This document shows positions 9,253 to 63,117 of a stretch of 64,000 nt of DNA, one piece after another (positions within the stretch are counted from its first letter, which is position 1; every line of letters starts with the position of its first letter). The stretch lies in the IMG/VR virus record IMGVR_UViG_3300010883_021048, positions 9,744 through 73,743 of that record; one strand, given 5' to 3'. The notes under the pieces were generated by a model that searched no databases, was not told where the DNA came from, and saw only the letters and a list, made by a program, of their open reading frames with translations. The position numbers and the translations under genes were made by a program. Origin of the DNA: a virus.

Positions 9253-10420
9253 CTATGACCCCAAGCTTTCTGCTATACTCATCCATAACAGAATTAATGT
9301 TAAATAAATTATTGATTTTTTCGCTTGACTCTTTCGCCCACTTAGTAGGGAGTTCACTTGATTTTCTAAACTTTTTTACTCTCGATTTAAAGCTTTCTTC
9401 GTTAGGCTCTGCCCATCTCGCGCCTTGAACCCAAATCCTACCGTCGCACATTTGCGGAGGTACGTTGATTAGTTTAAAAGTTACATCAAGATATTTTGTA
9501 TGTTTCAAGAAGTCTAAGTGACCAGAATGACCTGTTGCTATTATTGGTAGCCCAGACGCGGCTGCGTCTAGAATAGGTAAGCCCCATCCTTCACCTCTCG
9601 TTGGCGCGCACAGTACATTAACACTCTCGTGCTTGTATAACGCACCGATCTCGTCTGGACTTAATAATCCGTGGAGAACGTGAACTCTAGGGTATTTGCC
9701 AGGTCTTATTTCTGACAATACTTGAGAAATCATCTTTTCTGTATGCGTCCTATCTTGGCATGTCATTCTTCCCATATTGGTTTTTATAATGATACCAGCG
9801 GAAGCATCGTCTTTAAGCTCTTCACATAACCACTTTAGACAATTAAATGTATTTTTCCTGTCTGTCTGTACATCATGAGAAGTAATTTGACCAAACATAA
9901 GAAAGTTAAAATCTGTTGATAGAGCGCTAAGCTTATCGTTTAATTTATCAACATCCGGTGTGATATTAAAGTTACAAGTTATCGCTTCCGGAATGCTCAT
10001 TATTTTCTGGGGATTTAGCCCTCCATTTAGGAACGCTACCTTAGAATATTCACTCGGTACTACAACTGATGTCATTTTTTCCGCAGCGGCGATCCAGCTC
10101 TGGTTGCATTTATCTGCCTCGATACCTGCGGTGACGCCTATATTAATCTCTGCTAAATTAGGATCCCACTCGTCTGGTAGCTGGACTTGTAGTGATAACC
10201 CAGTTTTTAACGAAGGATTAGGATCTTGAGACCTACTCATGATATCGCCTATGATACCCTCTTCGGCTGCTGGATCTATATGGTAGGTACACATTCCCCA
10301 TGGTACTATAGACGCGTAAACATCCCACCCTTTTTGTGATCTAGCCCATTTCCATATCTGTCTTGTATGGTTTCCGTATCCTGTTACGCTAAGTAGCGGA
10401 CCTCTTACGATAACGATCAT
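9239..10420 (-). CDS. Glycosyltransferase family 4 (GT-B)
   Basis: N-terminal GPLLSVTGYG; PTRGEGWGLPILDAAASGLPIIAT (ExxGLxxxE/D motif). Confidence 0.9.
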   Translation of the reverse strand: MIVIVRGPLLSVTGYGNHTRQIWKWARSQKGWDVYASIVPWGMCTYHIDPAAEEGIIGDIMSRSQDPNPSLKTGLSLQVQLPDEWDPNLAEINIGVTAGIEADKCNQSWIAAAEKMTSVVVPSEYSKVAFLNGGLNPQKIMSIPEAITCNFNITPDVDKLNDKLSALSTDFNFLMFGQITSHDVQTDRKNTFNCLKWLCEELKDDASAGIIIKTNMGRMTCQDRTHTEKMISQVLSEIRPGKYPRVHVLHGLLSPDEIGALYKHESVNVLCAPTRGEGWGLPILDAAASGLPIIATGHSGHLDFLKHTKYLDVTFKLINVPPQMCDGRIWVQGARWAEPNEESFKSRVKKFRKSSELPTKWAKESSEKINNLFNINSVMDEYSRKLGVIVDNS

Positions 10421-42633: not shown

Positions 42634-43113
42634 TCATTTTGCATACGCATCTGCTAACCATGAAGATGCCCAAGAATCAGGCTTAACTACGCACTGATAT
42701 CCTTGTGATTTTACCCATGATGTTGCAGATGTAAATACTTGGGAAGATTTATACTTCTTATTAGGGTTGATATCGAGATGTACAAACATAAGTTCTCGAT
42801 TAAGAAATGTAGAGATCATGTTGGCCAATTGTAACGCTAGCTCTGCTTCCTTTAATAATCTAAGTTTCATATTAAGAAACAAAGATCGATTATTCTTTGA
42901 TCTAGCGAAAAAATATGTACCGCCTCTGCCGGGCTCATAAATCGCGACTACAATAGCAAATATACATTTGTCTTTTATAAAATGTGAATCACATCCAACG
43001 TGGACTTCTGATTGTAGCTTCTTATTTTTTACACGGTATAGAACTGTATCTAGGCAAAGCACATTTGAGCTAGCATCACACCACGTTAATGTGTCTAGCC
43101 TAATATTCTTCAT
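42634..43113 (-). CDS. RNase H-like YkuK (DUF458) family protein
   Basis: VHVGCDS, RLLKEAE, VHLDIN, KPDSWAS..AD. Confidence 0.85.
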   Translation of the reverse strand: MKNIRLDTLTWCDASSNVLCLDTVLYRVKNKKLQSEVHVGCDSHFIKDKCIFAIVVAIYEPGRGGTYFFARSKNNRSLFLNMKLRLLKEAELALQLANMISTFLNRELMFVHLDINPNKKYKSSQVFTSATSWVKSQGYQCVVKPDSWASSWLADAYAK

Positions 43114-44366
43114 GGCTCTAGTTCTAGTATAGCTTTGACATTATCTATGGACTTTCTATCTTGTTGCGCTCTTTTTATAGCTTTTTGCGCTTCAATTTGT
43201 GGTAGATATTCTACAGGATATTTTTCATCCATCTTAATAATACCTTGCTGCGCACATTTTGAAAAGTAAGTAAAAAATCCTGCAACCCTATCTTCTATAA
43301 GACCTTTCTCAGATTCGTCAAATTGTAAATGCAGCGATACATTCCTAGCTGACATTCTAGCTATTCTTTCAGACAAAATATCACGTACATCCGTAACTCT
43401 TTCTTTCTCTAGAAGATCTTGAAGTCTCATACGACTTCTTGTGGCTCTGAGTGATCCTTCATAATCTAGCATTATTCTAAGTGCACCATTTTTTGAGTCG
43501 TAAAAACAACTTTGTTCGCTATAATCATCTAACGCTATGCTACTTAATCTAATTCCTGTTTCATTAGACACTGGTACCACACCAGCTATAGAGCATACAT
43601 CCTTTATTTCATTTATAGAAAACAAAGAGTCTTCAAGAACAAAAGGTATAACATTCGTTTTTCCTTGCTGCCAGTTTACTAATAGTGTATTTGCAACATC
43701 ATCTGAAAACGAAGATGCAATTATAACCACTTTGCTCTTTGTGTTGTACGACGCTTCTAATATATGATGAATTTCGCTAACTTCCACGACAGCGCCGGCG
43801 ACAGGTATTATATGACAATCTTCTATATGCATCGTTGGAAAGTGGGGCTTAAAAAATTTGTCAATTTTGCATAATGTTCTAAACCCTTCGATCATTTCCG
43901 TGTAAGGTTTAAACTCTCCATATCCTAACTGCTTGGTGGATATACAACCTGTCGTACCGGCCTTGTACAGGGCCTCTAAAAGCACACCCATATTTTCCTG
44001 TAGGAACTCATCATTATTTCGCTTAAGCCCTCTGTGTAGCGTTTCTGAGCTTATCCTACTATGTACAGTTTCCAGTTTTGGACTTGTATCTGTAAGTGTT
44101 TGAAAGTAGAGAGGTAACGCAAACGGACATGTCTTGTTAATAGAGTTGATACTCGATATAAGAAGCTTATTAAGGGTTGGGGAACCTTCAAGCTCGCTAC
44201 TAAGAAATAGTCTGAATGAATCGTTCCATCCTAAACTATATATTTTAGTACTTGTTATTAGAGACTTTTCTCTGCTATCGACTCTTTTTTTGAAATCATG
44301 TATGTGGTTATATAGCTTTTTTTTTGAAGCGTCTAGCTGACAACCGATGATGATTTTATTTTGCAT
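43110..44366 (-). CDS. Highly diverged GroEL/chaperonin-like protein lacking the ATP-binding motif
   Basis: IHHILEA...VVIIASSFSDDVANTLLVN..G..NV, IKDVCSIAG and LSERIARMS resemble the GroEL apical/intermediate segments; no GDGTTT. Confidence 0.6.
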   Translation of the reverse strand: MQNKIIIGCQLDASKKKLYNHIHDFKKRVDSREKSLITSTKIYSLGWNDSFRLFLSSELEGSPTLNKLLISSINSINKTCPFALPLYFQTLTDTSPKLETVHSRISSETLHRGLKRNNDEFLQENMGVLLEALYKAGTTGCISTKQLGYGEFKPYTEMIEGFRTLCKIDKFFKPHFPTMHIEDCHIIPVAGAVVEVSEIHHILEASYNTKSKVVIIASSFSDDVANTLLVNWQQGKTNVIPFVLEDSLFSINEIKDVCSIAGVVPVSNETGIRLSSIALDDYSEQSCFYDSKNGALRIMLDYEGSLRATRSRMRLQDLLEKERVTDVRDILSERIARMSARNVSLHLQFDESEKGLIEDRVAGFFTYFSKCAQQGIIKMDEKYPVEYLPQIEAQKAIKRAQQDRKSIDNVKAILELEP

Positions 44367-44381
44367 ATTATACCGGTTCTG

Positions 44382-44666
44382 CTAGTGAACGCTAGGATCA
44401 TACTTCTTATTCTTATTTAACACTTCTTTTTTTGTTGCATTAAAAAGCTTAGATAGCGCTTGACCGAGCTCTTCTGCTTGCTCATTTAGCAATTTTGCAG
44501 TTGACTCAACCTCTTGTTGTTTTTCTTTCTTTTCTTGGATCTGTAAGGCTAATCTTACGAAAGCTATTACAGCGCTCCCACCTGCAAGAGATAGTCCCCA
44601 GGTGAGGCTTTGGAAAGATATTACTCCGGCGAACAATAAGAATAACTCTGGATAACCGACTTTCAT
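44382..44666 (-). CDS. Small membrane protein
   Basis: Two short hydrophobic segments plus a coiled coil; GGAG RBS. Confidence 0.6.
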   Translation of the reverse strand: MKVGYPELFLLFAGVISFQSLTWGLSLAGGSAVIAFVRLALQIQEKKEKQQEVESTAKLLNEQAEELGQALSKLFNATKKEVLNKNKKYDPSVH

Positions 44667-44675
44667 TTTGTCTCC

Positions 44676-46607
44676 TTAGCTGTCACGCCAGAGGTTGTTA
44701 CTAGCGTATACTAGAATCTCCTCAGCTGACTCAGCTGTATAACCATATTCGTCTATCAGCGTTTGTACCATAGAAGAATATTTTTGCTTTTGTTCATCGT
44801 CTCTAGTCTTTGACTTTGTAACGATTCTTGCTAAGTCTTTTACAGAAGTTATTAAATAGGTCTCGATGGCTTCTTTAAGTGGCTCGTATGAAGTGTAATC
44901 AACGATCTCACTTCTTCTCATTTTAGAAAACATGTATGCTGTTACATCTGCACGAAAGCCGTCTTTACCAGATCCACTAACACCGATTGTTGACTCTATA
45001 GATCTCATAAAGTTTTCATCAGGAGTCATTTCTTCGTTAGTAACCCTATCTTTCATCTTACCCTTAGTTGTATACGCTTCTGCATTATCAAGATAGTTCT
45101 CGAATATTGCTTGAGCTTGCTCTTCGTACGCCGTTATAAATGCCTTCGCGATTTCATTCTCTAGAATCTTAAGATATTCGTTTCTTACAACATTTCGAAT
45201 TAATTCAAGACATCTTTCTTGGAATTCTCTATCTACAATTTGATCCTTGACCTGTTTGATCAATGAGTCCATAATAGAGATAGGAGTAATATAAGCTTTG
45301 TCTGAGTCACTTAAAGCGTTATCAACAGCCTTCATTATAAATCTAGTTGATATACCATTCATGCCTTCTAGAGGAGCTTCATCCCTAAGATCCCTAATGT
45401 CTATTTTCTTAACTCGTCCCTTTTCAACAACTTCTTCGCCATTGTAGAGCTTGAGCTTTGTCAATAGATCACACTTTTGGCTTTCTTTGAGTCGACTTAA
45501 GATGGAGAACATCGAAGCAACCCTGATCGTGTGTGGTGCAATATGGGCTTTAAAGTTTGACCTAGACAATATCTTCTTGTAGATCTTAATCTCTTGTTCC
45601 AACTCTAACACGTAGGGTACATTAACCTTTACGACACGGTCAAGGATTGCTTCATTAGTGTGCTCGCTCTGAAAACGATTCCACTCTGATTCGTTACAAT
45701 GCGCTAAGATAACTCCATCGAAGTACAGCATGTCGTGCTTACCGGGTGACGGAACCCTCTTCTCCTGTGTCGCAGTAATTATTGTGTGGAGAAATTCAAT
45801 CTCATTCTTAAACACTTCTACGAGCTCTACAATACCTCTGTTACCAACGTTGAATGCACCGTTTAGGGATAACGCTCTAGGGTCATCTTCAGAGTATTTA
45901 TCAAGCTTAGAGATATCCTCAGAACCAATCAGTACTGAAACGTCTTGACTGTTCGCGTCCATCGGAGGAACTGATGCAACTCCTCTACGAGCTCTTTGAG
46001 AAAATGTTGTTTCAGATACCTTGAACTGCTCGTATTGTCCATCATAGTTTTCAAAGAGGAGATGTCGTGCAACTGGAGATAAGTCTCCTTCTATATGTAC
46101 ACCTAACATTTCGCCAAACTTATCTCTTAACGATCTAGGTAACAATTGCAACGGCTCACCACGCTGAGGATCTCCATCAAGGTGATAGTAGGGCTGACCA
46201 TCAAGAGACTTCTTAATGTGTTCAGTAAGCGCAGACTTTCCAGCCCCAACAGGACCCATTAGTAAAAGTACTTGTCGGCTTTCTTCACCCTTAAGAGCTG
46301 CAGAACGTAGGTATCGCATTAATTTAGCGATGACGTCCTCCATACCAAAAAACTCTTCCTGGAAATAGTCGTATGTTCTTACGTTATCCCCGTTAAAAAG
46401 CTTATGCTTACGTGGATCTGAATCTTCCATCCTTCCAACACCGAAGGACGTAATTGAATCGAATAGTCTTTTATGAGCATGATCAGCAATCTCTGGATCA
46501 TTTTCTACTAAAGCCAAGTATTCAAGGAACGTGCCCTTAAACTTCTTAGTCTTCTTTTGTTGTCTTTGCTCTTTTATTATATCTAAATAGTTGTTTTTCT
46601 TGGACAT
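44676..46607 (-). CDS. prkA: PrkA/YeaG AAA+ serine protein kinase family
   Basis: FFGMED, LLLMGPVGAGKS, DVSVLIGSEDI..L..YSEDDPRA, GNRGIVE.VEVFK, NEAILDR. Confidence 0.95.
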   Translation of the reverse strand: MSKKNNYLDIIKEQRQQKKTKKFKGTFLEYLALVENDPEIADHAHKRLFDSITSFGVGRMEDSDPRKHKLFNGDNVRTYDYFQEEFFGMEDVIAKLMRYLRSAALKGEESRQVLLLMGPVGAGKSALTEHIKKSLDGQPYYHLDGDPQRGEPLQLLPRSLRDKFGEMLGVHIEGDLSPVARHLLFENYDGQYEQFKVSETTFSQRARRGVASVPPMDANSQDVSVLIGSEDISKLDKYSEDDPRALSLNGAFNVGNRGIVELVEVFKNEIEFLHTIITATQEKRVPSPGKHDMLYFDGVILAHCNESEWNRFQSEHTNEAILDRVVKVNVPYVLELEQEIKIYKKILSRSNFKAHIAPHTIRVASMFSILSRLKESQKCDLLTKLKLYNGEEVVEKGRVKKIDIRDLRDEAPLEGMNGISTRFIMKAVDNALSDSDKAYITPISIMDSLIKQVKDQIVDREFQERCLELIRNVVRNEYLKILENEIAKAFITAYEEQAQAIFENYLDNAEAYTTKGKMKDRVTNEEMTPDENFMRSIESTIGVSGSGKDGFRADVTAYMFSKMRRSEIVDYTSYEPLKEAIETYLITSVKDLARIVTKSKTRDDEQKQKYSSMVQTLIDEYGYTAESAEEILVYASNNLWRDS

Positions 46608-46619
46608 TTTTTCCCCAAA

Positions 46620-47924
46620 TTAAATTTCAAACGGTTCATCTTCTATTATAGTGTCTAGTTTCACTACATCACCCCATAAAACACTTATGTGATGACATAC
46701 CGCATCGGCATAGTCTAGTTCAAGATCCCTACCATCATGCTCATGAATAAGACACAGTACATTCGATTCATCCACGTTATCAACCGCTATATAAGGAATA
46801 CTATTACCTCCGACCTGTTTGATTAGGTCTTCTCTAATATTTTTCCATCCTTTTTCATCTGACACGTCATCTACCTTGTACTCATCCTTGTGCAAAGAAT
46901 AACTAAACAGCTCTAATTCTTCGCAATCTTCTTGAGTTAAGTATTGTCTTATGAAGCTTTCGTCGTTTAAAGATTCTCTAGCTATGAAGCATTCTTCAAG
47001 ACCATGTCTTTCTTCAATTTTACGAAATAGGTGGAATCCTAAGTGATAGGGATTAATGGATCCAGGATGAGGTCTTACAACCTCATTATGTGTTTTAAGG
47101 AATGGGATATGCATCGATGAAGGAAGCTCGAGCTCATGCATTAATCTATAATGCCAATATGATGCCCACCCCTCATTCATTATCTTTGTCCTGATTTGAG
47201 GCATAAAGTAGTGTGCCTCCTCCTCGACAATAGATATTAACTCTCTCTGCCATTCCTCTAAATTAGGGCTATAATCTGCTATAAACGCTAGAATGTTTTC
47301 TTCTTCCTTTATAGGAACCCTATTTACATCCGGGAGCTGTGGTGCGTTATCGTGTAAGCCAGACTTTATTTCTTTGACAAGCTGCTCTCTCTGTTCTTTT
47401 TGAGGCATGTATCTGCTATATCTTCTAGGTATATTCATGGATAAAGCATGTGCTGAATCTAGTATTTTTTCAACAGCAGCTACGCCTATACTCGGATCCT
47501 CTATTAGCTTATCAACATAGCGCTTGGCGTTTCGCATTCTTAGTATAATGTTCTCTGGATGAGTATGCTGAAACGTTCTGTTATTCTTAAAGAAGTCAGA
47601 GTGTCCAATACAGTGCGCCATGATTAACACTTGTAGATACATAGGATTTTCTTCCATTAAGTAAGCTAAAGACGGATTACTGTTAATAATAAGCTCATAT
47701 GGAAGGCCCGTCTGGCCAGTGTTATACATTAAATGTTGACGTTCAAATGATTTCCCGAAACTCCAGTGGGCGTAGTGCGATGGCATACCATGATATGCCA
47801 TTGACCCGATCATCTCGAAGTAGTCGCACGTTTCGTAGGCCAACTCAAACCAGTCAAGTCCATGCTCTTTTGCCATACCACATAGTATGTCATCCCACTT
47901 TTTAATTTCTTCTAAAAATGTCAT
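46620..47924 (-). CDS. spoVR: SpoVR/YcgB family protein
   Basis: GMPSHYAHWSFGK, YELIINSNP, AHCIGHSDFFKNN, TKIMNEGWASYWH, NPYHLG. Confidence 0.95.
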   Translation of the reverse strand: MTFLEEIKKWDDILCGMAKEHGLDWFELAYETCDYFEMIGSMAYHGMPSHYAHWSFGKSFERQHLMYNTGQTGLPYELIINSNPSLAYLMEENPMYLQVLIMAHCIGHSDFFKNNRTFQHTHPENIILRMRNAKRYVDKLIEDPSIGVAAVEKILDSAHALSMNIPRRYSRYMPQKEQREQLVKEIKSGLHDNAPQLPDVNRVPIKEEENILAFIADYSPNLEEWQRELISIVEEEAHYFMPQIRTKIMNEGWASYWHYRLMHELELPSSMHIPFLKTHNEVVRPHPGSINPYHLGFHLFRKIEERHGLEECFIARESLNDESFIRQYLTQEDCEELELFSYSLHKDEYKVDDVSDEKGWKNIREDLIKQVGGNSIPYIAVDNVDESNVLCLIHEHDGRDLELDYADAVCHHISVLWGDVVKLDTIIEDEPFEI

Positions 47925-49090
47925 ACTTCACCCTTAAAAAAACTGTTAAATGCTCCCCAAATATCTTCTTTGCTAGCGATTGTAGCTGTCTTTAGTTTGT
48001 CGTTTGACATGTCGCTAAACAGCGCCCCTAAGCTAGAATCTCTAAGCCAAGCTAATCTTTCTTGTGACGGTTCAATTTCACAATAGCCATAGAATTGCAT
48101 CTTATGTAAAGACGCGTCAATGGCCTCTTTAACATTATCATTATCTGTTGGCCAGTTGTCTCCGTCAGAAGCGTGGAATGTGTATATGTTCCATGACGAA
48201 GGGTGATATCGTGAGTCTATAATATCATTGACCATCTTAATACCGGTTGAAGCTATAGTTCCACCAGAAGACCCTCTTTCAAAAAAGCTTTTTTCATCGA
48301 CTTCGTAAGCTTGCGATTCATAGGCAACAAACACAATATCAACTTTGTCGTACCTTGACCTTATAAAATGATAAAGCAAAAAGAAAAAGCTTCTTGATAA
48401 GAATTTTTTAGCAGTCCCCATAGATCCAGATATATCCATTAAGAAGAAGATTACTGCATTGGACGTCTTCTTTTCTGTCACGGCGTAGTGCTTATATCTT
48501 AGGTCTTTCTCTATATACGAAAATGATTCTTCTGAGTCTTCCGACCTCTTACCGGAAAACTCATCTTTTTTCATACGCTTTATTCTCTGTATCGCAGACT
48601 TTTTCTTGTCTAGTCGAGGACGTATACCTTTTGATCTATATCCTCTGCGCTTTATCTTCTTAGACAAAACTTGGGAATTCTTCTTCTTCTCAAAGTTAGG
48701 GAGCTTTAGATCTTTAAACAGGTACTCTGCAACCTGATCAAGTGTAAGCTCTACCTCATAAAATTCTTCGCCTGCTTCGTTTCCTGGCTTACCTGGTTTA
48801 CCTTGGCCTTTCTTTTTTTCTTTTTTGCCAATAGTCTGACCACGTTGCACATCATTATTCTCACCGGATCCAACAGAGTGTCTTCCATTATCTCCGTATA
48901 CAAACCTATATTCTTTAATTCCCCTAACGGGTATCTTAAACTTCTTCTTGCCACTTTCGCCAATTATTGATTCTTCTGCGACAATGTTATGAATACCTTC
49001 TTTAATTGCTTTTTCAATCTTTTTACGATGCCGCGCCCGATCACCTGCTGACCGGTCTGCTATCGTTTTATGTTTTTTGAATATAGACAT
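47921..49090 (-). CDS. yeaH: YeaH/YhbH (DUF444) vWA-like protein
   Basis: DRARH, IPVRGIKEYRF, DLRY, AVIFFLMDISGSM, SSGGT, WNIYTFHASDGDNW. Confidence 0.93.
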   Translation of the reverse strand: MSIFKKHKTIADRSAGDRARHRKKIEKAIKEGIHNIVAEESIIGESGKKKFKIPVRGIKEYRFVYGDNGRHSVGSGENNDVQRGQTIGKKEKKKGQGKPGKPGNEAGEEFYEVELTLDQVAEYLFKDLKLPNFEKKKNSQVLSKKIKRRGYRSKGIRPRLDKKKSAIQRIKRMKKDEFSGKRSEDSEESFSYIEKDLRYKHYAVTEKKTSNAVIFFLMDISGSMGTAKKFLSRSFFFLLYHFIRSRYDKVDIVFVAYESQAYEVDEKSFFERGSSGGTIASTGIKMVNDIIDSRYHPSSWNIYTFHASDGDNWPTDNDNVKEAIDASLHKMQFYGYCEIEPSQERLAWLRDSSLGALFSDMSNDKLKTATIASKEDIWGAFNSFFKGEV

Positions 49091-54614: not shown

Positions 54615-55166
54615 TTATTTTGTGCGCTGTTGTAGCAGATAAGCATAGTTTTCATGAATGTCTACTAAGCCGGCCATCATATTATCCATACCATAAGTTA
54701 GCGAGTCTAAGTCTTCTAGAGCTCTTGCTGTGCCTTCACCAATGTTGACTAATTGCTTCGTATACTCTAGCGCTAAAGTAGCAATTCTTTCGGAAGCTTG
54801 TTCTGATGGTGACTCCCACTCATTGAGCATTAGCATAGCATCTTCAGTTATTCTTATAGGACATGCAATACTCTCATCCTGGTATACCCCAACGCCCTTC
54901 TCGATCACTCCGTCAATAGCATCTTGTACTTCATTGTAGATCTTTCCGTAAAGCTCTACGTGATCACCAGCGAAAGAGGGACCCTTAACAACATTGTGCG
55001 CGCCGTGCATCCACAGATGGTATGCTCTAAGAAATCCTACGTATACAGACAGGATCTCTGCCGGAGCTGGTGCTATGATATCTTCTAGAGCATTCATATC
55101 AATAGCTATTTCAATGCCTTGCTCTAACTGACTGCCACAAGAGTCACACGATTCCTTTAATCTCAT
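54615..55166 (-). CDS. Dps/ferritin-like four-helix protein
   Basis: H..AHNVVKGPSFAGDHVELY..IY.E....D.VIEK ... HE..AYLL pattern. Confidence 0.7.
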   Translation of the reverse strand: MRLKESCDSCGSQLEQGIEIAIDMNALEDIIAPAPAEILSVYVGFLRAYHLWMHGAHNVVKGPSFAGDHVELYGKIYNEVQDAIDGVIEKGVGVYQDESIACPIRITEDAMLMLNEWESPSEQASERIATLALEYTKQLVNIGEGTARALEDLDSLTYGMDNMMAGLVDIHENYAYLLQQRTK

Positions 55167-55489
55167 GAATCACCTTCCTGTTCCATTCTATTAAGTTTAT
55201 ATTCAAGGTAATGATATACCTTGCCAATGTTATCTGCAGCCACCGCGATTTTTGACTGTACCCATTCAGGAAGATCATCGTCGTCCATAAGCTTATCATG
55301 AAGTGATTGCGAATATCTAGCCAGCTTATCCAGCTGTGACTTAGTCATCCGACCTTCACCCTCACCATAGCCAAGATCTCTTCCACCTTGTCGATCTGCA
55401 GGTTCGCTGATCAAAACATCGCTAATAACATCTTCTAGAGATAGCTGCTCTTTAATAATTTTTCTTAGTTGTCTTTTTGTAATCTTCAT
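55163..55489 (-). CDS. Leader-array member 13 (MKITKRQLRKIIKEQ...)
   Basis: Start re-assigned to the ATG at 55489, 1 nt after the upstream stop; body EGRMTKSQL...LPEWVQSKIAVAAD. Confidence 0.8.
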   Translation of the reverse strand: MKITKRQLRKIIKEQLSLEDVISDVLISEPADRQGGRDLGYGEGEGRMTKSQLDKLARYSQSLHDKLMDDDDLPEWVQSKIAVAADNIGKVYHYLEYKLNRMEQEGDS

Positions 55490-55490
55490 T

Positions 55491-55874
55491 TTAATACCCG
55501 TATCCTGAATCTTTGGTATTTTCAATTTGATCGTGTATATTCTTGGCTAATTCTTCTTTGTCGGATGAATCCCAGCTTTCTAGATGATCATGTACTTCGT
55601 TCCATTTATCTAGAGCTTCTTGCCATTCTTTCTCATTGTAACTGAATGATTCGATCGACGGCTTCTCTTCTTCCAAGATCTCTGCTAGGGAAATAGCATC
55701 TGAATCAGAGAACCACTCCTTCTTTCCTTCGAAGCTTTTTTCAGTTGCGAATATTACTAGTGCAGGAATCTCAACACGGATAGGATCATGATCACCCTCA
55801 TATACATCTGTATCTGCTTCACACAGCAATGATTCTTTAATAATTCTTCTAAGTTGCCGTTTTGTAATCTTCAT
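55491..55874 (-). CDS. Leader-array member 12 (MKITKRQLRRIIKESLLCE...)
   Basis: Shared leader, acidic body. Confidence 0.8.
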   Translation of the reverse strand: MKITKRQLRRIIKESLLCEADTDVYEGDHDPIRVEIPALVIFATEKSFEGKKEWFSDSDAISLAEILEEEKPSIESFSYNEKEWQEALDKWNEVHDHLESWDSSDKEELAKNIHDQIENTKDSGYGY

Positions 55875-56665
55875 CTTCTTTCCCTTGGTAGACCATCGGT
55901 CCTGGATGAATACTTATTTACGGATGATGCAGACATCGCCGCTAGAGCCTCAGGGCTATTAGAGACATACCACGCGTCTTCGGCGTCGTCAAAGAAAACT
56001 TCTGACTCATCGATCATGACATCTAAAATGTCGAAGACTTCTTCTTTTGTAATGGCTAGACTAGGATCGATCATACCGTAATCACTAAGCTCTTCCATCA
56101 CATCTGCTGCGAGTTTTTCCCCACGAATCCCGGGCTGGCTATCTAGAATAAAAAGTACAGCATCCTGTATTTCACCAAAGCGTTCCTTCATGTTACCTTC
56201 TTTAAGAGATGTTACTTCCCTAACGATCTTCCTAAGCCGTCCTACCAACGACTCATTGACATCTTCTTCGTCGTCGTAGTTTGCGTCCGACTGTCGGGCG
56301 CGGTCTTCATTATAGTCATCGTCATCATCGGCGGCATCGATGATACCCTTTTGTAACTGATCTGGGAGCTTTGTCTGATCGCCCTTCAGCGCCGGGTCTG
56401 CGTTATACTTTACAGTCGCCTCAGCTTCGCTTTTTTTTTCGTTCATCCGCCGGCGGACTTCATTAACAACTATATCCAAAACTTCCTGATCGTCTATATT
56501 AGCTTCACCAGTTAGAATTTTAGAATAGTCAAGGGGCTCGACAAGATCTTCACCGCCAGCCCATGCATCTTCAACAGCCTCAACATCAGCTGGATGCTTG
56601 GGTAGATCAGCAGACTCTGCTTCTTCTCTAATAATTCGTAATAGCTGTCTTTTTGTAATTTTCAT
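55871..56665 (-). CDS. Leader-array member 11 (MKITKRQLLRIIREE...), with an internal second leader-like motif
   Basis: Shared leader; internal VNESLVGRLRKIVREVTSLKE. Confidence 0.8.
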   Translation of the reverse strand: MKITKRQLLRIIREEAESADLPKHPADVEAVEDAWAGGEDLVEPLDYSKILTGEANIDDQEVLDIVVNEVRRRMNEKKSEAEATVKYNADPALKGDQTKLPDQLQKGIIDAADDDDDYNEDRARQSDANYDDEEDVNESLVGRLRKIVREVTSLKEGNMKERFGEIQDAVLFILDSQPGIRGEKLAADVMEELSDYGMIDPSLAITKEEVFDILDVMIDESEVFFDDAEDAWYVSNSPEALAAMSASSVNKYSSRTDGLPRERR

Positions 56666-56684
56666 CTTATTCTTTCCTTAAATC

Positions 56685-57323
56685 TCAATCATACATTGGT
56701 GGTGGGGATCTATAAATCTTACGGTTCTTGAGTGTCTTACCAGCTCTCCTGGTTAGGAATTCTTCAAACCCTTTTCTCTTACCGTCGAGATCATCATTTG
56801 TGACATGAACTTCGTCGACCCCATGAGAAATTGACTGTGGTGGAGAAAGACGGATATAGTTCTTATACCGTTTCCAGCCTAGCGTCTTTAAATCATCTGG
56901 AGTGATTGACTCTCCCCACGCCTTGGACATGATCTCTAGCCAAGCCTTGTCGGGATCTGCAGCAATTGCGGCTGCATCTTTTTTAGATGATTCATCATGC
57001 CACGCATCGTTAAGATCCTCCATAAACTTAAAGACCGCGGTGGGATTCCAGCCTTCTGGAGTTACAGCGTCCGGACCCATCCACTTAACATCTCCAACTC
57101 TCTTAATCCAAGGTCTTATTGCGTCGAGATCGTAATATAGCTCGTCGGTATTAACTTCAGGATCAGCTAGTGCACCAGTAATATCATTAGTCAGTGCGTA
57201 ATTGGCAATCCTATTAAAGATATCAACATCCTCATATTCATTAACAATAATATCTTGCATCTCGGCTTCAACAAGAAGAGACTCTCGAATCATTTGTCTA
57301 AGCTGTCTTTTTGTAATCTTCAT
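56685..57323 (-). CDS. Leader-array member 10 (MKITKRQLRQMIRESLLVE...)
   Basis: Start re-assigned to the ATG at 57323. Confidence 0.8.
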   Translation of the reverse strand: MKITKRQLRQMIRESLLVEAEMQDIIVNEYEDVDIFNRIANYALTNDITGALADPEVNTDELYYDLDAIRPWIKRVGDVKWMGPDAVTPEGWNPTAVFKFMEDLNDAWHDESSKKDAAAIAADPDKAWLEIMSKAWGESITPDDLKTLGWKRYKNYIRLSPPQSISHGVDEVHVTNDDLDGKRKGFEEFLTRRAGKTLKNRKIYRSPPPMYD

Positions 57324-57327
57324 TTTG

Positions 57328-57750
57328 TTATTTCCTTGCCCTTTGGTCTCTAACATGTACATCAGGATTCAGACCAGATCCAATCTTATCATCTCTTACG
57401 TTCATAATTGTATCGGCGAGATATTGAAGCATAGCGTCTTCATTTTGTCCAACAACTTCTTTCTGCTTAGCAGAATAATTCGAGTCGTTATAAAAGTCCG
57501 CGTCCAGCCACATAGCTTCAGCACCAGCGTCCGGGTCACGAGAGTTATACTTCGTTGGATCATTCAGGTCCCGCCATATATTATACCCGGTCATTTCTAG
57601 AACTTTTTTATCAGCAGCCGTCAGTGCCCCAGCGGGACCAGGCTGCGGACCTTTATATCCCGGCATCGTGATCTTGTCGAATTCTTCATCAGATACTGTT
57701 GTAATAGCTTCTTTGATGATTCTTCTAAGTTGACGTCTAGTGATTTTCAT
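57328..57750 (-). CDS. Leader-array member 9 (MKITRRQLRRIIKEA...)
   Basis: Shared leader. Confidence 0.8.
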   Translation of the reverse strand: MKITRRQLRRIIKEAITTVSDEEFDKITMPGYKGPQPGPAGALTAADKKVLEMTGYNIWRDLNDPTKYNSRDPDAGAEAMWLDADFYNDSNYSAKQKEVVGQNEDAMLQYLADTIMNVRDDKIGSGLNPDVHVRDQRARK

Positions 57751-57760
57751 TCTTTAATTC

Positions 57761-58075
57761 CTATCGTAATAGTCTTAGTAGCGCAGCACCAGGTTCTGGT
57801 AATCCCAAAGATTCAAATACTTCTGCAACAGTAAGGATTAAAGCGCCGATCGATTCATCATTGGCCATCTCTTCATCTCCTAGATCTTCCATTGCATCAT
57901 TCATTGTCTGAGTGTATAGAGATTCCATGGCAGCTTTAACAGCGTCAATCTCGGTAATGTCTGAATACATACCTTGACTACGTCTTGTATTTTCTAAGGC
58001 ACCAGACCCTTGCTCAACGAGCTTGGTCTTCTCTTCTCTTATAATTCTTCTTAGTTGTCTTTTAGATATTTTCAT
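57761..58075 (-). CDS. Leader-array member 8 (MKISKRQLRRIIREEKTKLVEQ...)
   Basis: Start re-assigned to the ATG at 58075. Confidence 0.8.
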   Translation of the reverse strand: MKISKRQLRRIIREEKTKLVEQGSGALENTRRSQGMYSDITEIDAVKAAMESLYTQTMNDAMEDLGDEEMANDESIGALILTVAEVFESLGLPEPGAALLRLLR

Positions 58076-58076
58076 T

Positions 58077-58547
58077 TTAACCTTCATCCTCTAAAGCTTC
58101 CATTGCGGCCTGGAGAGCTTCTTGTATTCCAACGGCATCATCATCTTCCATCATACCAAGAACCCTACCAAGCTTATCATAAGCCATTTGAATTGCGTTA
58201 GGGTTTTGCTGATAGGCGACTTCCATAAACTCTTCACTGCCCGGAGCTGAATTATTATAGGCAGCAACGATCTCATCAACTTGACTTTGAACGGCATCAC
58301 CTAATCCCCCATACGCCTTCGCGAATTCAATAAGGTCCGATCCTGTTTCCGGCCGGTCCCCCCATTGTTCATTGAGGAGCTTGGTCTTCTCTTCTTTTAA
58401 TCGCCGCAGGCGATTCGCGCGAGATTTTCTACCGGCTCCGCCGGAGATCGATCCGCGTTTCCGGGAGGCATACGGTGTACCCTCGTTCCGAAGGCGTACC
58501 TTCTCTTCTCGGATAATACGTTGCAGCTTTTGTTTCGTGATTTTCAC
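58077..58547 (-). CDS. Leader-array member 7 (MKITKQKLQRIIREE...), with a duplicated leader
   Basis: GTG start; second copy NRLRRLKEEKTKLLNEQ. Confidence 0.8.
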   Translation of the reverse strand: MKITKQKLQRIIREEKVRLRNEGTPYASRKRGSISGGAGRKSRANRLRRLKEEKTKLLNEQWGDRPETGSDLIEFAKAYGGLGDAVQSQVDEIVAAYNNSAPGSEEFMEVAYQQNPNAIQMAYDKLGRVLGMMEDDDAVGIQEALQAAMEALEDEG

Positions 58548-58984
58548 GTGGATATTCCAGTGTAAACCAATCCACCTTCTTCATGCATGGCATCAGGCCA
58601 GATAGTGATCCAGTCATTATATAACGCTTCGACATCGGTATCAACAAGTCCGGTATCGATATATAACTCGCCGTTCTCTTCATCGATAATAGCAGAGGGC
58701 CCAAAAAGATCCAAGGCTTGACGATAAACATCATCACTAACAGTATCGCCAGTAGCGCTACCAGGTCCAGGCCGGCCTTGCTCTTGAATACCCGCTAAGT
58801 CAGCCCATCGAGCTTCATCAACGAAATCAAGCTTAGGGTCAGCTTCTTCATCATCACCCCAGCTCCGGGATAGAACATCCTTCTCATAGCCTTCGGTCCC
58901 TTCTTCGCCACCTGGATGGTTCGCAAGGACAGTCTTTTCTTCCATCAGCATCTTTGCTAATTGCTTTACAGTTACTTTTTTCAT
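58544..58984 (-). CDS. Leader-array member 6 (variant MKKVTVKQLAKMLMEEKTVL...)
   Basis: Start re-assigned to the ATG at 58984, which overlaps the upstream TGA (ATGA). Confidence 0.75.
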   Translation of the reverse strand: MKKVTVKQLAKMLMEEKTVLANHPGGEEGTEGYEKDVLSRSWGDDEEADPKLDFVDEARWADLAGIQEQGRPGPGSATGDTVSDDVYRQALDLFGPSAIIDEENGELYIDTGLVDTDVEALYNDWITIWPDAMHEEGGLVYTGIST

Positions 58985-59121
58985 AGGTAGTACGCTCCAA
59001 TAAGAGAACCGATTATCGCGCCTTTGGCGAAAGCGATCCATATAATTTGATAAGCGGAAAGTCCAAGACGATCCGCCATATTACTCAATAATTCTTTGTG
59101 CCATTTCGCTAAACGGGTCAT
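58981..59121 (-). CDS. 46-aa membrane peptide (not in ORF track)
   Basis: MTRLAKWHKELLSNMADRLGLSAYQIIWIAFAKGAIIGSLIGAYYL*; ATGA coupling to the next gene. Confidence 0.65.
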   Translation of the reverse strand: MTRLAKWHKELLSNMADRLGLSAYQIIWIAFAKGAIIGSLIGAYYL

Positions 59122-59126
59122 TTGAC

Positions 59127-59228
59127 TTAAGCCATCCGTGAGATAATCGTTGTATCATCCCGCTCGGAGAGCAACGGGTTGCATTCCTCACGTATAATAC
59201 TTCTTGTTAATTCTTTAGAGGCGGACAT
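59127..59228 (-). CDS. Leader-array member 5: 33-aa leader-only mini-ORF or remnant (not in ORF track)
   Basis: MSASKELTRSIIREECNPLLSERDDTTIISRMA*; ATG 1 nt after the upstream stop. Confidence 0.45.
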   Translation of the reverse strand: MSASKELTRSIIREECNPLLSERDDTTIISRMA

Positions 59229-59229
59229 T

Positions 59230-59547
59230 TCAATACTCACCATTGATTAGACGACCTTCGATATCGATGAAGACCTTTGTGATCGCATCGTTGATACCAG
59301 AGTCGACTTCGAGCACAGCATCGTTGACCATATCTTCCCAGAGATCCTTGTCCCTGGTGACATCGCTAGGGTAATCGAGACCCTCGTCAAATAGAGCAAT
59401 CATCTTTCTAAGGAAGATGTCACCAACAGCACGTGATGCCTGTTCAATGACGTCTTGGACTTCGGTCATGTCCGTCATGCTCTCCCTTAATAGGCGGGTA
59501 CGCTCTTCACGGATAATCTTCTTTAACTGTTTCTTAGATACTTTCAT
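59230..59547 (-). CDS. Leader-array member 4 (MKVSKKQLKKIIREERTRLLRE...)
   Basis: Shared leader; C-terminus DIEGRLINGEY. Confidence 0.8.
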   Translation of the reverse strand: MKVSKKQLKKIIREERTRLLRESMTDMTEVQDVIEQASRAVGDIFLRKMIALFDEGLDYPSDVTRDKDLWEDMVNDAVLEVDSGINDAITKVFIDIEGRLINGEY

Positions 59548-59562
59548 TGTGTGTAATCCTTG

Positions 59563-59877
59563 TTAAGCGTAATCGCCGTTATGCAAGCGTTCCTCGACAT
59601 CATTGAAGAGCTCGAGCATCATCTTGGCTGCACCAGAGTCAATGATGGCCTGATAATATGCGAAGCCGGCAGCAGAGATCTCTTGCTCCCACCCAGGTCC
59701 GGTGCCTTGGTATGATTCGGCGCCAACGAGATCCTCGAAAAGCTCCTGCATTGCCATGGCTACGTTCTCTTCAAGCTCAGTAGGTGTTTCACCGATTAGG
59801 GATTCACCACCTTGCTCTGATAGCTTGGCACGCTCTTCTGCAATTAGGCGTCTTATTTGTGATTTGTTTAACTTCAT
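59563..59877 (-). CDS. Leader-array member 3 (MKLNKSQIRRLIAEERAKLSEQ...)
   Basis: Shared leader; C-terminus DVEERLHNGDYA. Confidence 0.8.
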   Translation of the reverse strand: MKLNKSQIRRLIAEERAKLSEQGGESLIGETPTELEENVAMAMQELFEDLVGAESYQGTGPGWEQEISAAGFAYYQAIIDSGAAKMMLELFNDVEERLHNGDYA

Positions 59878-59879
59878 GA

Positions 59880-60146
59880 TTAGCGTCCTTGTTGGTTGTC
59901 GAGGTCTAGTACTGAATCTGCAATATCTTGTAGTTCACCAGAGAGTTCTTCTGGATCCATACCATTATTAAGGAGAAATGAAACTGCGTCGTTGATTAGC
60001 CCTAACTGTTTTGATATCTCTGTTGGGCTCATATCGTAGCGCTGCGACGTACCATCACGGTTGTAGGTCTGGGAGCCTTGCTCACTGAGGAGCTTGGTCT
60101 TCTCTTCTTTAATGATGTTACGCAATTGGCGTTTCGAAACTTTCAT
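59880..60146 (-). CDS. Leader-array member 2 (MKVSKRQLRNIIKEEKTKLLSEQ...)
   Basis: Shared leader; GAGG RBS. Confidence 0.8.
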   Translation of the reverse strand: MKVSKRQLRNIIKEEKTKLLSEQGSQTYNRDGTSQRYDMSPTEISKQLGLINDAVSFLLNNGMDPEELSGELQDIADSVLDLDNQQGR

Positions 60147-60155
60147 AGGTTACCT

Positions 60156-60620
60156 CTATCGTAATTGGTTGGCTAGTTGTCTAAGATCTTCTAGTGCGAG
60201 TCTAGCATCTTCAAGGTCTAGACCTAATTCATCGGCCATACCGGCATCGACAAGGACAGTTTCATGCTTATCCTGCCATGCTGCTATAGCTAAGGTAGCG
60301 TCATGCATCATTTCTTGTAGGTCCTTAAAGGCACCACCGAACTTAAGCGTCTGAAATGCATTCTCTTTAGGATCGGCTGAGGGGGCCGGCATCGGCTGTT
60401 CGGTTAGGTCGTTGTTATTGTTACTGTATGTACCAATGACTCTAGCGTCTTTACCGTATGACTTGGCGAAATCAGGAGTCCGGTTTGGGTTCCAGTCTGC
60501 AAAACCGATACTTCCGGCGCCGAATCGTGCTTCGTTAAGGGTTTCTTTAGATGAATCGCTAGAGAGTCTCGCGCGCTCTTCTCTAATGATCTGGCGTAGC
60601 CTTTTCTTACTAATCTTCAT
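60156..60620 (-). CDS. Leader-array member 1 (MKISKKRLRQIIREERARL...TLNE)
   Basis: Shared leader; AGGAG RBS; ATACTTA motif at 60668-60674. Confidence 0.8.
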   Translation of the reverse strand: MKISKKRLRQIIREERARLSSDSSKETLNEARFGAGSIGFADWNPNRTPDFAKSYGKDARVIGTYSNNNNDLTEQPMPAPSADPKENAFQTLKFGGAFKDLQEMMHDATLAIAAWQDKHETVLVDAGMADELGLDLEDARLALEDLRQLANQLR

Positions 60621-60691
60621 GGGGGGTGTCTCCTGAGGTTACACTCGTTAAGAGTTGACGTCATTGTTAAGTATTTCGTAACGAGCTACTT

Positions 60692-61245: not shown

Positions 61246-61650
61246 TCCTGTGAGCTCAGGGCGGACTGTGTAACCGAAGAACGACGCTGTCGCTGCTAGC
61301 CCGCAGTATAAATGTATCAGTTCGACCCGAGTAAAGTCAGCCATACCGGCTTGTTCACGAGCTGCATTAGGATCACATCCCTCTAACCAGTATTCTATAT
61401 CTTGCATTACGTTACTGACTAGCCACGCTGTGATGGTCCTGTCATTGACTGCTGCATAGTTCTCATTCCAATGTTCTATATACTTTGCTACCTTAGCATC
61501 GACTCTATCCATATAGACTTCCTTAGCACTTTCTGTTATAAGCCGCGCATGACCATGCTTCTGGTAGAATGAAGCCTTAGCAGAATGTTGATTGTTCGGG
61601 TGAACGGTTGTTTCGAAGGGATACGTTATCACCGCGTGAAGTGGAGTCAT
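61237..61650 (-). CDS. Hypothetical protein
   Basis: Likely start is the ATG at 61650 (ATGA overlap with the vWA gene stop), MTPLHAVITYPF... Confidence 0.6.
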   Translation of the reverse strand: MTPLHAVITYPFETTVHPNNQHSAKASFYQKHGHARLITESAKEVYMDRVDAKVAKYIEHWNENYAAVNDRTITAWLVSNVMQDIEYWLEGCDPNAAREQAGMADFTRVELIHLYCGLAATASFFGYTVRPELTGVT

Positions 61651-63065
61651 GCTGCCGTCCTGTCCATTGTCTTTGGCCAGCGCATCTTGATGATGACATC
61701 CTTCTTGTAGTTGGTCATCCAGTCCTGTACTGCGCCGTCGGGTGTAATCACCCAAGCACGTGGTAGACGACTCGGACCGGGGTCGCTAGCGTACCCATCC
61801 GTGAGGATGATGTAGCCATCAAAGACTCGCTTCCGCTTATTAGCATGGGCACTGGGAGCCTTGAAACAGGTACCTCCGCCCCTGGTCCGGTGTGGGGGGT
61901 GACCGTTCTTTCGCTTCCACACTGCCTTACTATCTTCGTCTACCTCAGTGTCGAAGTGGAAGTTTGTGAACTCTGTATTCTTAGCCAAGTTAGCCAACTC
62001 ACCGAAGCATAGTGCCAACTCAGCATCGCTTACCGAACCGGACTGGTCAATGTATGTAGCCACACTAGAAGTATAAGACCTCTTAGCTCCGGGGACCAAC
62101 CGACCCATGGTCGAGTGGATACGACTGTAAGAAGTAGTCCGGTTAGCTCGGCGACTGTAGCCGCAGAAGCGGTCTAAGATTTTCTGCCAAGGGACTTCAT
62201 TAACCAGTGCTGCCTTAATCTGACGCCTGAGCTCTGCAGGTACCGAACCCCATTGACCCTTTGCATCACACTCTTTAGCAGCGTTACCAGCAGCTTCCTT
62301 AATCTTGGCCTTGATGAACTCACGGTCTTCATCAGACATTTCGTCCCAGCCTTCATGGTCATCCAAGGTACCTGGGATTGTAGGAAGAGGATTACCGTCT
62401 GCATCACAGACTTCACCGTTCTCACCGATAGTAACGTCACCATCACGGAGTGCATCCGCTAGACTCTTACCACCTGGACCGGCTTGGTTTTCAATAGCAT
62501 CTTTAACTTCAGGGTCTTCCATCAACCGGGCGAAGTACCATTCGGCAGACATCTTACCTGGGAAGCTGGCGACCTTATCGGATACCAACTGGTACCGAGC
62601 CACGGCATTTTCTCCCATACGCTCCTTGTCTTCATCGGTAAGCTCCTTGAAAGCCTTGCCCGGGAATAGACCGAAGTCGGGAAGCTCACCAACCAAGTGG
62701 CTGTTAATGGCCAAGTCGGTAGCGTAGTTCCAGATGATGTGTGGCTCGTACTTACGAGTCGTAGTATGTTCGAAGATGAGGTGGAGCATTTCGTGCTTCA
62801 TGACTCCCCGGATGTGCTTACCCGGTAGAGCTGCAAGGAATGCCTTGTTGAACCACATCTTAAGATCGCCATCCTTAGCCAGAACACCAGCTGTGCGGAT
62901 ACGATCTGTTGGGACCTTGGTAACTCGGCGAAGAACCTTACCGTAGAAGGGTTCCTCTAGCATCATAGCTACAAGGTGTGGTTTGATATCAAAGGCTTTG
63001 GCAGTAGCTTCGTCAGCAAACTGAATGCCGGCTACTTCGGTGGTGGTGTTTTCGTCTTTAGCCAT
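61647..63065 (-). CDS. DUF2201-type metallopeptidase + vWA domain protein
   Basis: KHEMLHL (HExxH), WNYATDLAIN, DDH..W, IDQSGSVS MIDAS, GGGT, ILTDGY; start re-assigned to the ATG at 63065 (GGAG RBS). Confidence 0.88.
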   Translation of the reverse strand: MAKDENTTTEVAGIQFADEATAKAFDIKPHLVAMMLEEPFYGKVLRRVTKVPTDRIRTAGVLAKDGDLKMWFNKAFLAALPGKHIRGVMKHEMLHLIFEHTTTRKYEPHIIWNYATDLAINSHLVGELPDFGLFPGKAFKELTDEDKERMGENAVARYQLVSDKVASFPGKMSAEWYFARLMEDPEVKDAIENQAGPGGKSLADALRDGDVTIGENGEVCDADGNPLPTIPGTLDDHEGWDEMSDEDREFIKAKIKEAAGNAAKECDAKGQWGSVPAELRRQIKAALVNEVPWQKILDRFCGYSRRANRTTSYSRIHSTMGRLVPGAKRSYTSSVATYIDQSGSVSDAELALCFGELANLAKNTEFTNFHFDTEVDEDSKAVWKRKNGHPPHRTRGGGTCFKAPSAHANKRKRVFDGYIILTDGYASDPGPSRLPRAWVITPDGAVQDWMTNYKKDVIIKMRWPKTMDRTAA

Positions 63066-63117
63066 GTTATGAACTCCAAGGGTTTGATGGGCCGTATTCC
63101 CCATTCCTTATATTAAT

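Follow-up and report, generated by a model that had tools for sequence, protein, structure and literature searches.

A shared basic N-terminal leader on arrays of small acidic proteins in uncultured marine T4-like jumbo phages: a candidate capsid-targeting propeptide

The stretch of viral DNA considered here, 64,000 nucleotides (nt) corresponding to positions 9,744 to 73,743 of the IMG/VR record IMGVR_UViG_3300010883_021048 (hereafter the window), carries on its minus strand, between 55163 and 60620, a tightly packed array of 12 intact genes of 88-264 amino acids (aa) that open with the same short leader, as judged from a listing of open reading frames (ORFs) and from our own translation. All 12 leaders follow the pattern MK[IVL][TSN]K[RKSQ][QRK][LI]R.[ILM]I[RKA]E; the consensus of the array genes is MK[IV][TS]K[RK]QLRRII[KR]E, the array leader type being MKITKRQLRRIIKEE, and the bodies that follow are net acidic in 12 of 12 cases. 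A striking observation is that, in large relatives of the source phage, a conserved head-module protein has an N-terminus homologous to this leader, and that the leader ends in the same kind of tripeptide at which their capsid protein would be cleaved, and we suggest that it is probably a capsid-targeting and cleavage propeptide of the T4 type.

The preliminary description of this DNA had counted 13 leader-bearing genes; 12 of these are intact, and the thirteenth start, at 59228, is real but opens only a 33-codon remnant. Numbered along the minus strand, each gene starting at its higher coordinate, gene 1 (60156-60620, 154 aa) begins MKISKKRLRQIIREE and has body homologues at four other loci, and gene 2 (59880-60146, 88 aa) has a long-type leader with LSE ending at residue 22. 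Gene 3 (59563-59877, 104 aa) has a diverged leader, MKLNKSQIRRLIAEE, and a body paralogous to that of gene 4 (59230-59547, 105 aa; BLAST E 8e-5), the only pair of bodies in the window related by BLAST; gene 4 lies mostly inside a segment, 59059-59481, that is replaced in related strains. There follow the remnant (59127-59228), with a degenerate leader (MSASKELTRSIIREE..LLSE), and a leaderless ORF of uncertain status (58981-59121, 46 aa) with a hydrophobic C-terminus. Gene 5 (58544-58984, 146 aa) carries a variant leader, MKKVTVKQLAKMLMEE; gene 6 (58077-58547, 156 aa) starts with GTG and contains a second leader-like segment near residues 44-61; gene 7 (57761-58075, 104 aa) is the one that was modelled; and gene 8 (57328-57750, 140 aa) has a short-type leader, IIKE followed by A. 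The array is completed by gene 9 (56685-57323, 212 aa), gene 10 (55871-56665, 264 aa), in which three modules, known elsewhere as separate leader genes, are combined into a mosaic that contains two degenerate leaders internally, gene 11 (55491-55874, 127 aa) and gene 12 (55163-55489, 108 aa). Pfam and PHROGs searches with 10 of the 12 proteins (all except those of genes 11 and 12) assigned no family, and scans of the array for sigma-70 promoters and terminators gave no excess over shuffled sequence.

In IMG/VR, 104 stretches match a degenerate DNA pattern of the leader, most of the 80 that were listed lying on contigs of 170-293 kb, and leader-matching contigs often hold several copies. A hidden Markov model (HMM) search over these loci yielded 587 leader ORFs beginning at a start codon and 508 unique proteins; the leader statistics refer to a set of 436 non-redundant leader proteins. 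Information per position in this set is 2.5-4.4 bits at residues 1-14, 1.7 bits at residue 15 and less than 1 bit beyond. Glu14, which lay outside the search pattern (this covered the first 12 leader residues), is conserved in 97% of the 436 proteins, and as a consequence 97% of them have an I-[KR]-E with its Glu at this position, against a background of 2.2% for [LIVM]xE in the bodies. The 14-residue shared N-terminus, MKITKRQLRRII[KR]E, is a basic amphipathic helix (net charge +6 in residues 1-13, helical moment 0.69), and in about half of the family it is lengthened to about 22 residues by E[KR]xxLLxE. Among leaders with Glu15, 81% have a second [LIVM]xE at residues 18-26, most often at 22 and mostly followed by Q, A, S or G; of those with Ala15, 77% have none. 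In the window, [LIVM]xE ends at residue 14 in all 12 leaders (15/16 in the variant leader), and 8 of the 12 genes have a second such site by residue 30. The earlier view that the leader continues to an L-x-E site must thus be narrowed: about half of the leaders, mainly those with Glu15, have the distal site (residue 21/22), and the best-conserved candidate is the I-x-E of residues 12-14, inside the leader. An AlphaFold2 (AF2) model of the gene 7 protein, built with five homologues (mean predicted local distance difference test score 80.9), shows a helix at the N-terminus (residues 5-33), low confidence between about residues 21 and 40, and further helices at 40-65, 68-89 and 93-101. Foldseek searches of this model against BFVD and PDB returned nothing with E < 0.4, and PDB sequence searches with the leader and head-core profiles as queries returned only noise.

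Same-residue codon pairs of the leaders differ synonymously in 53% of cases, so selection acts on the leader peptide and not on the DNA, as had been proposed; mean nucleotide identity between leaders is 65%. One could nevertheless envision a DNA- or RNA-level element, either a recombination site for cassette exchange or an enhancer of translation initiation, to which the peptide is incidental: in metagenome assemblies, leaders are where the breakpoints of contigs and apparent leader-to-leader joints concentrate, and the first codons are A-rich. However, the depth spikes and short-flank joints at leaders are explained by the many unrelated metagenome contigs that align over the roughly 42-nt leaders only, and the joints, whose short flanks show 85% likeness, fit repeats and are best read as repeat artefacts, so that recombination at leader-to-leader joints is not proven. 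Conservation also tracks amino acids across hundreds of loci, and together with the divergence of the codons this makes an element at the nucleic-acid level hardly credible.

Judged from its sequence, the source phage is a distant, uncultured, marine branch of the T4-like jumbo phages. Its contig (73.7 kb, of which the window is the larger part) is rated about 20% complete; the large genes of the window all lie on one strand, and the gene content includes a T4-type baseplate wedge protein, PrkA, SpoVR, PhoH-PIN, a helicase, and sugar-nucleotide and glycosyltransferase genes. The window is syntenic with 115-173 kb of G001, a complete viral genome of 284 kb, at 35-73% protein identity. The closest matches of the G001 capsid protein, all below 48% identity, are to uncultured huge phages, Flavobacterium phage immuto, Microcystis phage Mel-JY01 and Rhodothermus phage RM378, and parts of the array are present in seawater metagenomes of many studies.

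If the leader is a capsid-targeting propeptide, one would look for a gp21-like protease and for the leader on a head-core protein, and both were found in relatives, the latter as a homologue of the leader. All four leader-bearing relatives of about 280 kb, whose genomes are complete or nearly so, encode both a protease of the Peptidase_S77 (gp21) family and a gp23-type capsid protein, and in each the T4 gp23 cleavage site FLTE/A corresponds in the alignment to VL[KR]E/[AS], the Leu and the Glu being invariant; the capsid cleavage site of the relatives is of the same hydrophobic-[KR]-E form as the leader end. The head genes of G001 run in the order portal, 274-aa, protease, 134-aa, 153-aa, 97-aa, 190-aa, 209-aa, 543-aa scaffold-like and capsid, the scaffold-like protein, encoded before the capsid gene, having a pI of 4.46 and 5 [LIVM]xE per 100 residues; PHROGs and Pfam searches with the G001 head-module proteins gave nothing useful. 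It is the 153-aa protein, two genes past the protease, that begins like the leader (MAKITKRMLKGIVKE). This start is kept in the orthologues of three other genomes, so that the N-termini in the four read MAK[IV][TS]..L..[IL][IV]KE, and when the leader profile is compared with these four proteins by hhalign, leader residues 2-26 fall on residues 3-27 with a probability of 86% (E 5e-6). The genome-wide leader HMM search likewise recovers the 153-aa protein (E 0.0027), and in a six-frame BLOSUM scan of the 284 kb outside the arrays the 153-aa protein (score 41) and the 97-aa protein (36) were two of the three best matches, the other being a segment inside a short ORF (37). AF2 is confident for the N-terminal helix of the 153-aa protein only, as expected of a core protein. 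In one relative, a leader array begins 72 nt after the capsid gene. A separate peculiarity of the head region is seen in the complete relative G003, where two full-length gp23-type capsid genes with identical N-termini stand in tandem at about 176.3-180.2 kb (loci L116/L118).

The bodies are as diverse as the leader is constant. By BLAST, the 436 bodies fall into 224 clusters, 171 of them singletons, and among 150 long leader proteins only about 7 have any Pfam domain (none of the ten longest does), from which it follows that the tag is uncommon on ordinary enzymes; this near absence of enzyme cargos is in line with capsid targeting. The domains found were LRV/HEAT, Zeta_toxin/AAA_33, DUF5824 (twice), DEK_C, and weak matches to Mu-like_Pro and PepSY. 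The LRV/HEAT-repeat protein is a leader protein of 541 aa (L072:7832-9454, minus strand), and the Zeta_toxin/AAA_33 protein, which is P-loop kinase-like, is another of these rare domain-bearing members. The bodies had been described as short, acidic and mostly unrelated; acidity was borne out in all 12 genes of the array, whereas some bodies proved to be paralogues or mosaics, and related genes that seem leaderless often have degenerate leaders. In keeping with the latter, a search for truly leaderless cargo homologues was not successful, most candidates having degenerate leaders or being cut by locus ends. Of 154 database proteins examined, 134 contain two to four leaders, and the internal leaders mostly retain Met after a translated stretch resembling a ribosome-binding site (..E[SNG]K followed by M), which identifies these proteins as in-frame fusions of adjacent cassettes. 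Whole segments also change between strains: in metagenome contigs of related strains, 59059-59481 is swapped for about 710 nt of other sequence, and 42 nt stand in place of 58064-58391, which comprises the second module of gene 6 and the initial codons of gene 7.

These properties bear on the question of whether the leader proteins are simply an expanded family of accessory proteins of the prohead core or scaffold, paralogous to the head-core protein, which assist in assembling a large head and, on maturation, are broken down or leave it, being neither retained nor delivered as effectors. The homology of the leader to the N-terminus of a conserved head-module protein would be accounted for in this way; the bodies, being acidic and helical or disordered, resemble scaffold proteins, and the T4 core too holds small acidic proteins such as gp67. 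However, the bodies contain [LIVM]xE at the background level of 2.2 per 100 residues, as compared to 4-5.5 per 100 in the scaffold-like, protease, 274-aa, 153-aa and 97-aa proteins. Relative to expectation from composition, moreover, [LI]xE occurs at 1.00 times in 426 bodies, while [LI]xD (1.40), Ex[LI] (1.33) and Dx[LI] (1.34) are all in excess. Expressed as the log ratio of [LI]xE to [LI]xD enrichment, the leader bodies stand at -0.33 (-0.45 to -0.23, locus-block bootstrap), other genes of the same loci at -0.07 (-0.14 to -0.01), other G001 genes at +0.07 (-0.02 to +0.16) and small acidic neighbour genes, a set contaminated by many degenerate-leader genes, at -0.20 (-0.32 to -0.09). Because Asp at the cleavage position blocks processing in T4 (PMC9026906), this asymmetry is the pattern expected of selection against internal cleavage, and the depletion of [LI]xE relative to [LI]xD therefore argues for survival of the bodies rather than their degradation. 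The extreme diversity of the bodies (224 clusters among 436, and 8,529 protein clusters worldwide) and the replacement of cassettes between strains would also be unexpected of structural scaffolds, and we regard a role confined to head building as quite improbable.

In its distribution the leader is found almost only in this uncultured marine T4-like group. A profile search counts 40, 17, 32 and 26 copies in the four relatives of about 280 kb and 11 in the contig of the window, and the 8,529 proteins (E <= 0.001) come from a search of 1.84 billion cluster representatives (50% identity) with the leader profile. Across 596 Gb of prokaryote genomes the leader pattern occurs in 8 stretches only, all of them on contigs of metagenome-assembled genomes (MAGs) with inconsistent taxonomy, which are probably mis-binned phage. 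One such contig, NHDW01000006.1 (305,838 bp; 'Methylococcaceae TMED69' MAG; loci L141, L145 and L146), carries at least 7 leader genes and probably represents the entire genome of a phage of this lineage that was wrongly assigned to a bacterium. A contig from a 'Halobacteriovorax' MAG and a leader-bearing IMG/VR viral contig, both of 101,404 bp, are probably the same sequence. Searches of a phage database with the array and with one gene (blastn and tblastn) gave no match, a search for homologous proteins with gene 7 gave 5 matches only, and the ESM Atlas returned only unnamed viral clusters with scores below 0.9. The leader motif strings were not found in the literature, nor was a publication describing the leader array, and the jumbo-phage papers that we checked contain no description of it. 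Some leader genes, at the IMG/VR loci L055 and L070 and in about 11 other copies, have ATA (Ile) in place of the expected ATG; in two cases a stop lies one codon upstream, leaving no canonical start, and such genes represent either non-canonical initiation or fresh pseudogenes.

Upstream of the array, 54 nt before its first ATG, lies the heptamer ATACTTA (60668-60674, minus strand), which the preliminary description had taken for a putative late promoter. The box is indeed present and enriched: ATACTTA is the most enriched 7-mer in the upstream gaps of G001 (7 occurrences against 0.48 expected, with the variant ATATTTA at 12 against 1.06), where the portal gene and a baseplate-module gene are among those of the structural region that ATAYTTA precedes, at 17-45 nt. 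The minus-strand sites of the window (5684, 25515, 39605, 41346, 60674 and 63139) lie 10-54 nt before gene starts, ATACTTA preceding six genes that include the orthologous baseplate-module gene (5655) and the array (60620), and of 485 leader genes 23 have ATAYTTA no more than 80 nt away, in most cases at 27-46 nt, against a background of 1.07% of random windows. We infer from the portal and baseplate genes that it accompanies that ATAYTTA is a candidate late-type promoter consensus of this lineage; its late role, as opposed to its presence, is thus a matter of association. The box differs from the T4 late box TATAAATA, which was considered and found not to be used upstream of genes here. Recurrent boxes containing TATAAT, often (G)ATATAATA(G), are a separate feature of the gaps upstream of 12641, 25501, 32461, 52869, 54538 and 63104, and may constitute a second promoter class, either host sigma-70-like or middle.

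A basic amphipathic helix that is predicted by AF2 to stand apart from the body could also be a shared binding or oligomerisation module acting in the infected cell (on polymerase, nucleoid or chaperone, for example, or between the leader proteins themselves), being neither a packaging signal nor cleaved. Such a module would leave unexplained the strictly N-terminal position of the leader, the sharp end of conservation exactly at I-x-E, the match to the cleavage motif of the capsid protein, the homologous N-terminus of a head-module protein and the promoter-like box that the arrays share with portal and baseplate genes, and we consider it unlikely.

The gene just upstream of the array (61647-63104, minus strand) encodes a DUF2201_N putative metallopeptidase with a VWA-like domain and is preceded at 35 nt by an ATACTTA box of its own; in G001, the homologue lies about 5 kb from one leader array. 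The leader might accordingly be imagined as a recognition tag for this protein, perhaps together with a MoxR-type ATPase, in a processing or remodelling pathway independent of the head. However, adjacency is the sole link, the largest G001 arrays (at 271-284 kb) are far from the gene, and there is no known specificity that ties the family to I-x-E, all of which makes this a very improbable explanation. Directly downstream of the array, a gene of 183 aa (54615-55166, minus strand) has a weak PDB match to Dps/Dlp ferritin-like proteins (E 0.005-0.007) and no Pfam match at E 0.001, and its G001 homologue (604-1092) likewise adjoins a leader array. Farther away, the pair PrkA (AAA_PrkA and PrkA) and SpoVR (43110-49090, minus strand), with its neighbouring genes, is kept in G001 at 52-73% identity.

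The closest known counterpart is the capsid-targeting sequence (CTS) of T4, the textbook case of head-loaded proteins and the basis of T4 protein-delivery vectors, which concerns a handful of proteins in cultured coliphages. In T4, the CTS of IPI, IPII and IPIII (and Alt) is removed by gp21 (Mullaney and Black 1996; reviewed in PMC9026906 and PMC3012670); N-terminal propeptides of 10-19 residues target the internal proteins to the core (PMC9026906), and the determinants of processing are the I and E of I-x-E (PMC9026906, PMC3012670). The leader described here is likewise a short N-terminal peptide, of up to 22 residues, that is common to otherwise unrelated, fast-evolving proteins and ends in (I/L)-x-E, and it occurs in T4-like genomes, among which the relatives encode a protease of the gp21 family and preserve the cleavage site of gp23. 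It differs in being strongly basic and 14 residues long, in being carried by 17-40 genes per genome as compared to about 3-4 in T4, in preceding acidic bodies where the mature T4 internal proteins are basic and DNA-associated, in occurring also on a conserved head-module protein, in its frequent in-frame multi-cassette fusions, and in being known from sequence alone. T4 gp67 (PF17634) and gp68 offer a further parallel as small core proteins encoded beside the protease; gp67 consists of a helix and then an acidic tail, and its LIKEEK resembles the IIKEEK of the leader. A GP67 HMM nevertheless found no match in five genomes (G000-G004) at E <= 10, and homology of the leader or head-module proteins to gp67 is not supported (hhalign of the 97-aa orthologues, E 0.28; BLASTP match of 11 residues, E 0.045). 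Encapsulin cargo-loading peptides are short terminal peptides that send diverse cargo into an HK97-fold shell; they are usually C-terminal, are not removed by a protease and are non-viral, and their likeness to the leader is functional only. To our knowledge, the ejection and inner-body proteins of phiKZ-like and SPN3US-like jumbo phages have no single common N-terminal leader. These phages are of another lineage with another head architecture, and resemble the present case in that a large phage packs many different proteins into its head and has propeptides trimmed by a T4-related protease at a Glu-containing motif (PMC5694885, PMC7411985).

We thus favor the view that the leader is a capsid-targeting and cleavage propeptide of the T4 type with a new sequence, which 17-40 genes in each genome carry and which a head-core protein either shares or gave rise to, and would put the probability of this at roughly 0.58. 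Under such circumstances, the helix would dock each protein on the strongly acidic prohead scaffolding core, probably through the same contact as the head-core protein with the homologous N-terminus, and a gp21-family prohead protease would then cut after Glu14 of I-[KR]-E or after the second L-x-E (residue 21/22), freeing diverse, fast-turning-over small acidic proteins inside the head. Their later fate would most likely be ejection with the DNA, the least supported step. Docking, cleavage and retention in the head are what the comparisons above lead us to infer, whereas ejection and an effector role are speculative. The original idea of capsid targeting and protease release is thus supported in part: every sequence-level prediction testable here came out positive, whereas delivery into the host above all is still a conjecture.

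Several observations weigh against this view. Net acidic bodies make up 86% of leader proteins, as opposed to the basic internal proteins of T4, and by inspection of the consensus the leader shares with MKTYQEFIAE only M1, K2 and the terminal I-x-E. Residue 15, which would be P1', is Glu in 59% of leaders, a residue that the protease may not accept there; 17-40 different cargos would need to share one head. No head module was found in the window's own contig (about 20% complete), and for this reason the protease and capsid protein are documented in relatives only. The 97-aa head protein matches the leader profile only weakly when compared on its own (hhalign probability 7.7%), and the one relative with an array behind the capsid gene has a terminator-like hairpin separating the two. 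The interval for [LI]xE depletion in leader bodies overlaps that of the small acidic neighbours, and no depletion is visible in the window's 12 proteins alone, the trend being family-wide only. There were no RNA runs among the listed holders of array sequence, and the leader alone gave a single weak match in INPHARED, to an uncultured phage of 484 kb, with no cultured relative among the matches.

A broader proposition is that a head-core docking helix has been turned into a general address label, by which 17-40 rapidly exchanged proteins per genome (more than 8,500 clusters globally) would be packaged, trimmed and injected; this we advance tentatively, as possible rather than probable. If true, a tag different from the T4 CTS and following the same logic would be present on thousands of protein families in abundant uncultured ocean phages, its origin would be the N-terminus of a head-core protein, and the in-frame multi-cassette fusions would be polyproteins resolved by the protease. 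It would further allow packaged, and probably injected, proteins to be listed from metagenomes by a sequence rule, and would provide many candidate anti-defence factors as well as a second, orthogonal loading tag for engineering. The packaged effector and anti-defence arsenal of uncultured phages would then be readable straight from sequence.

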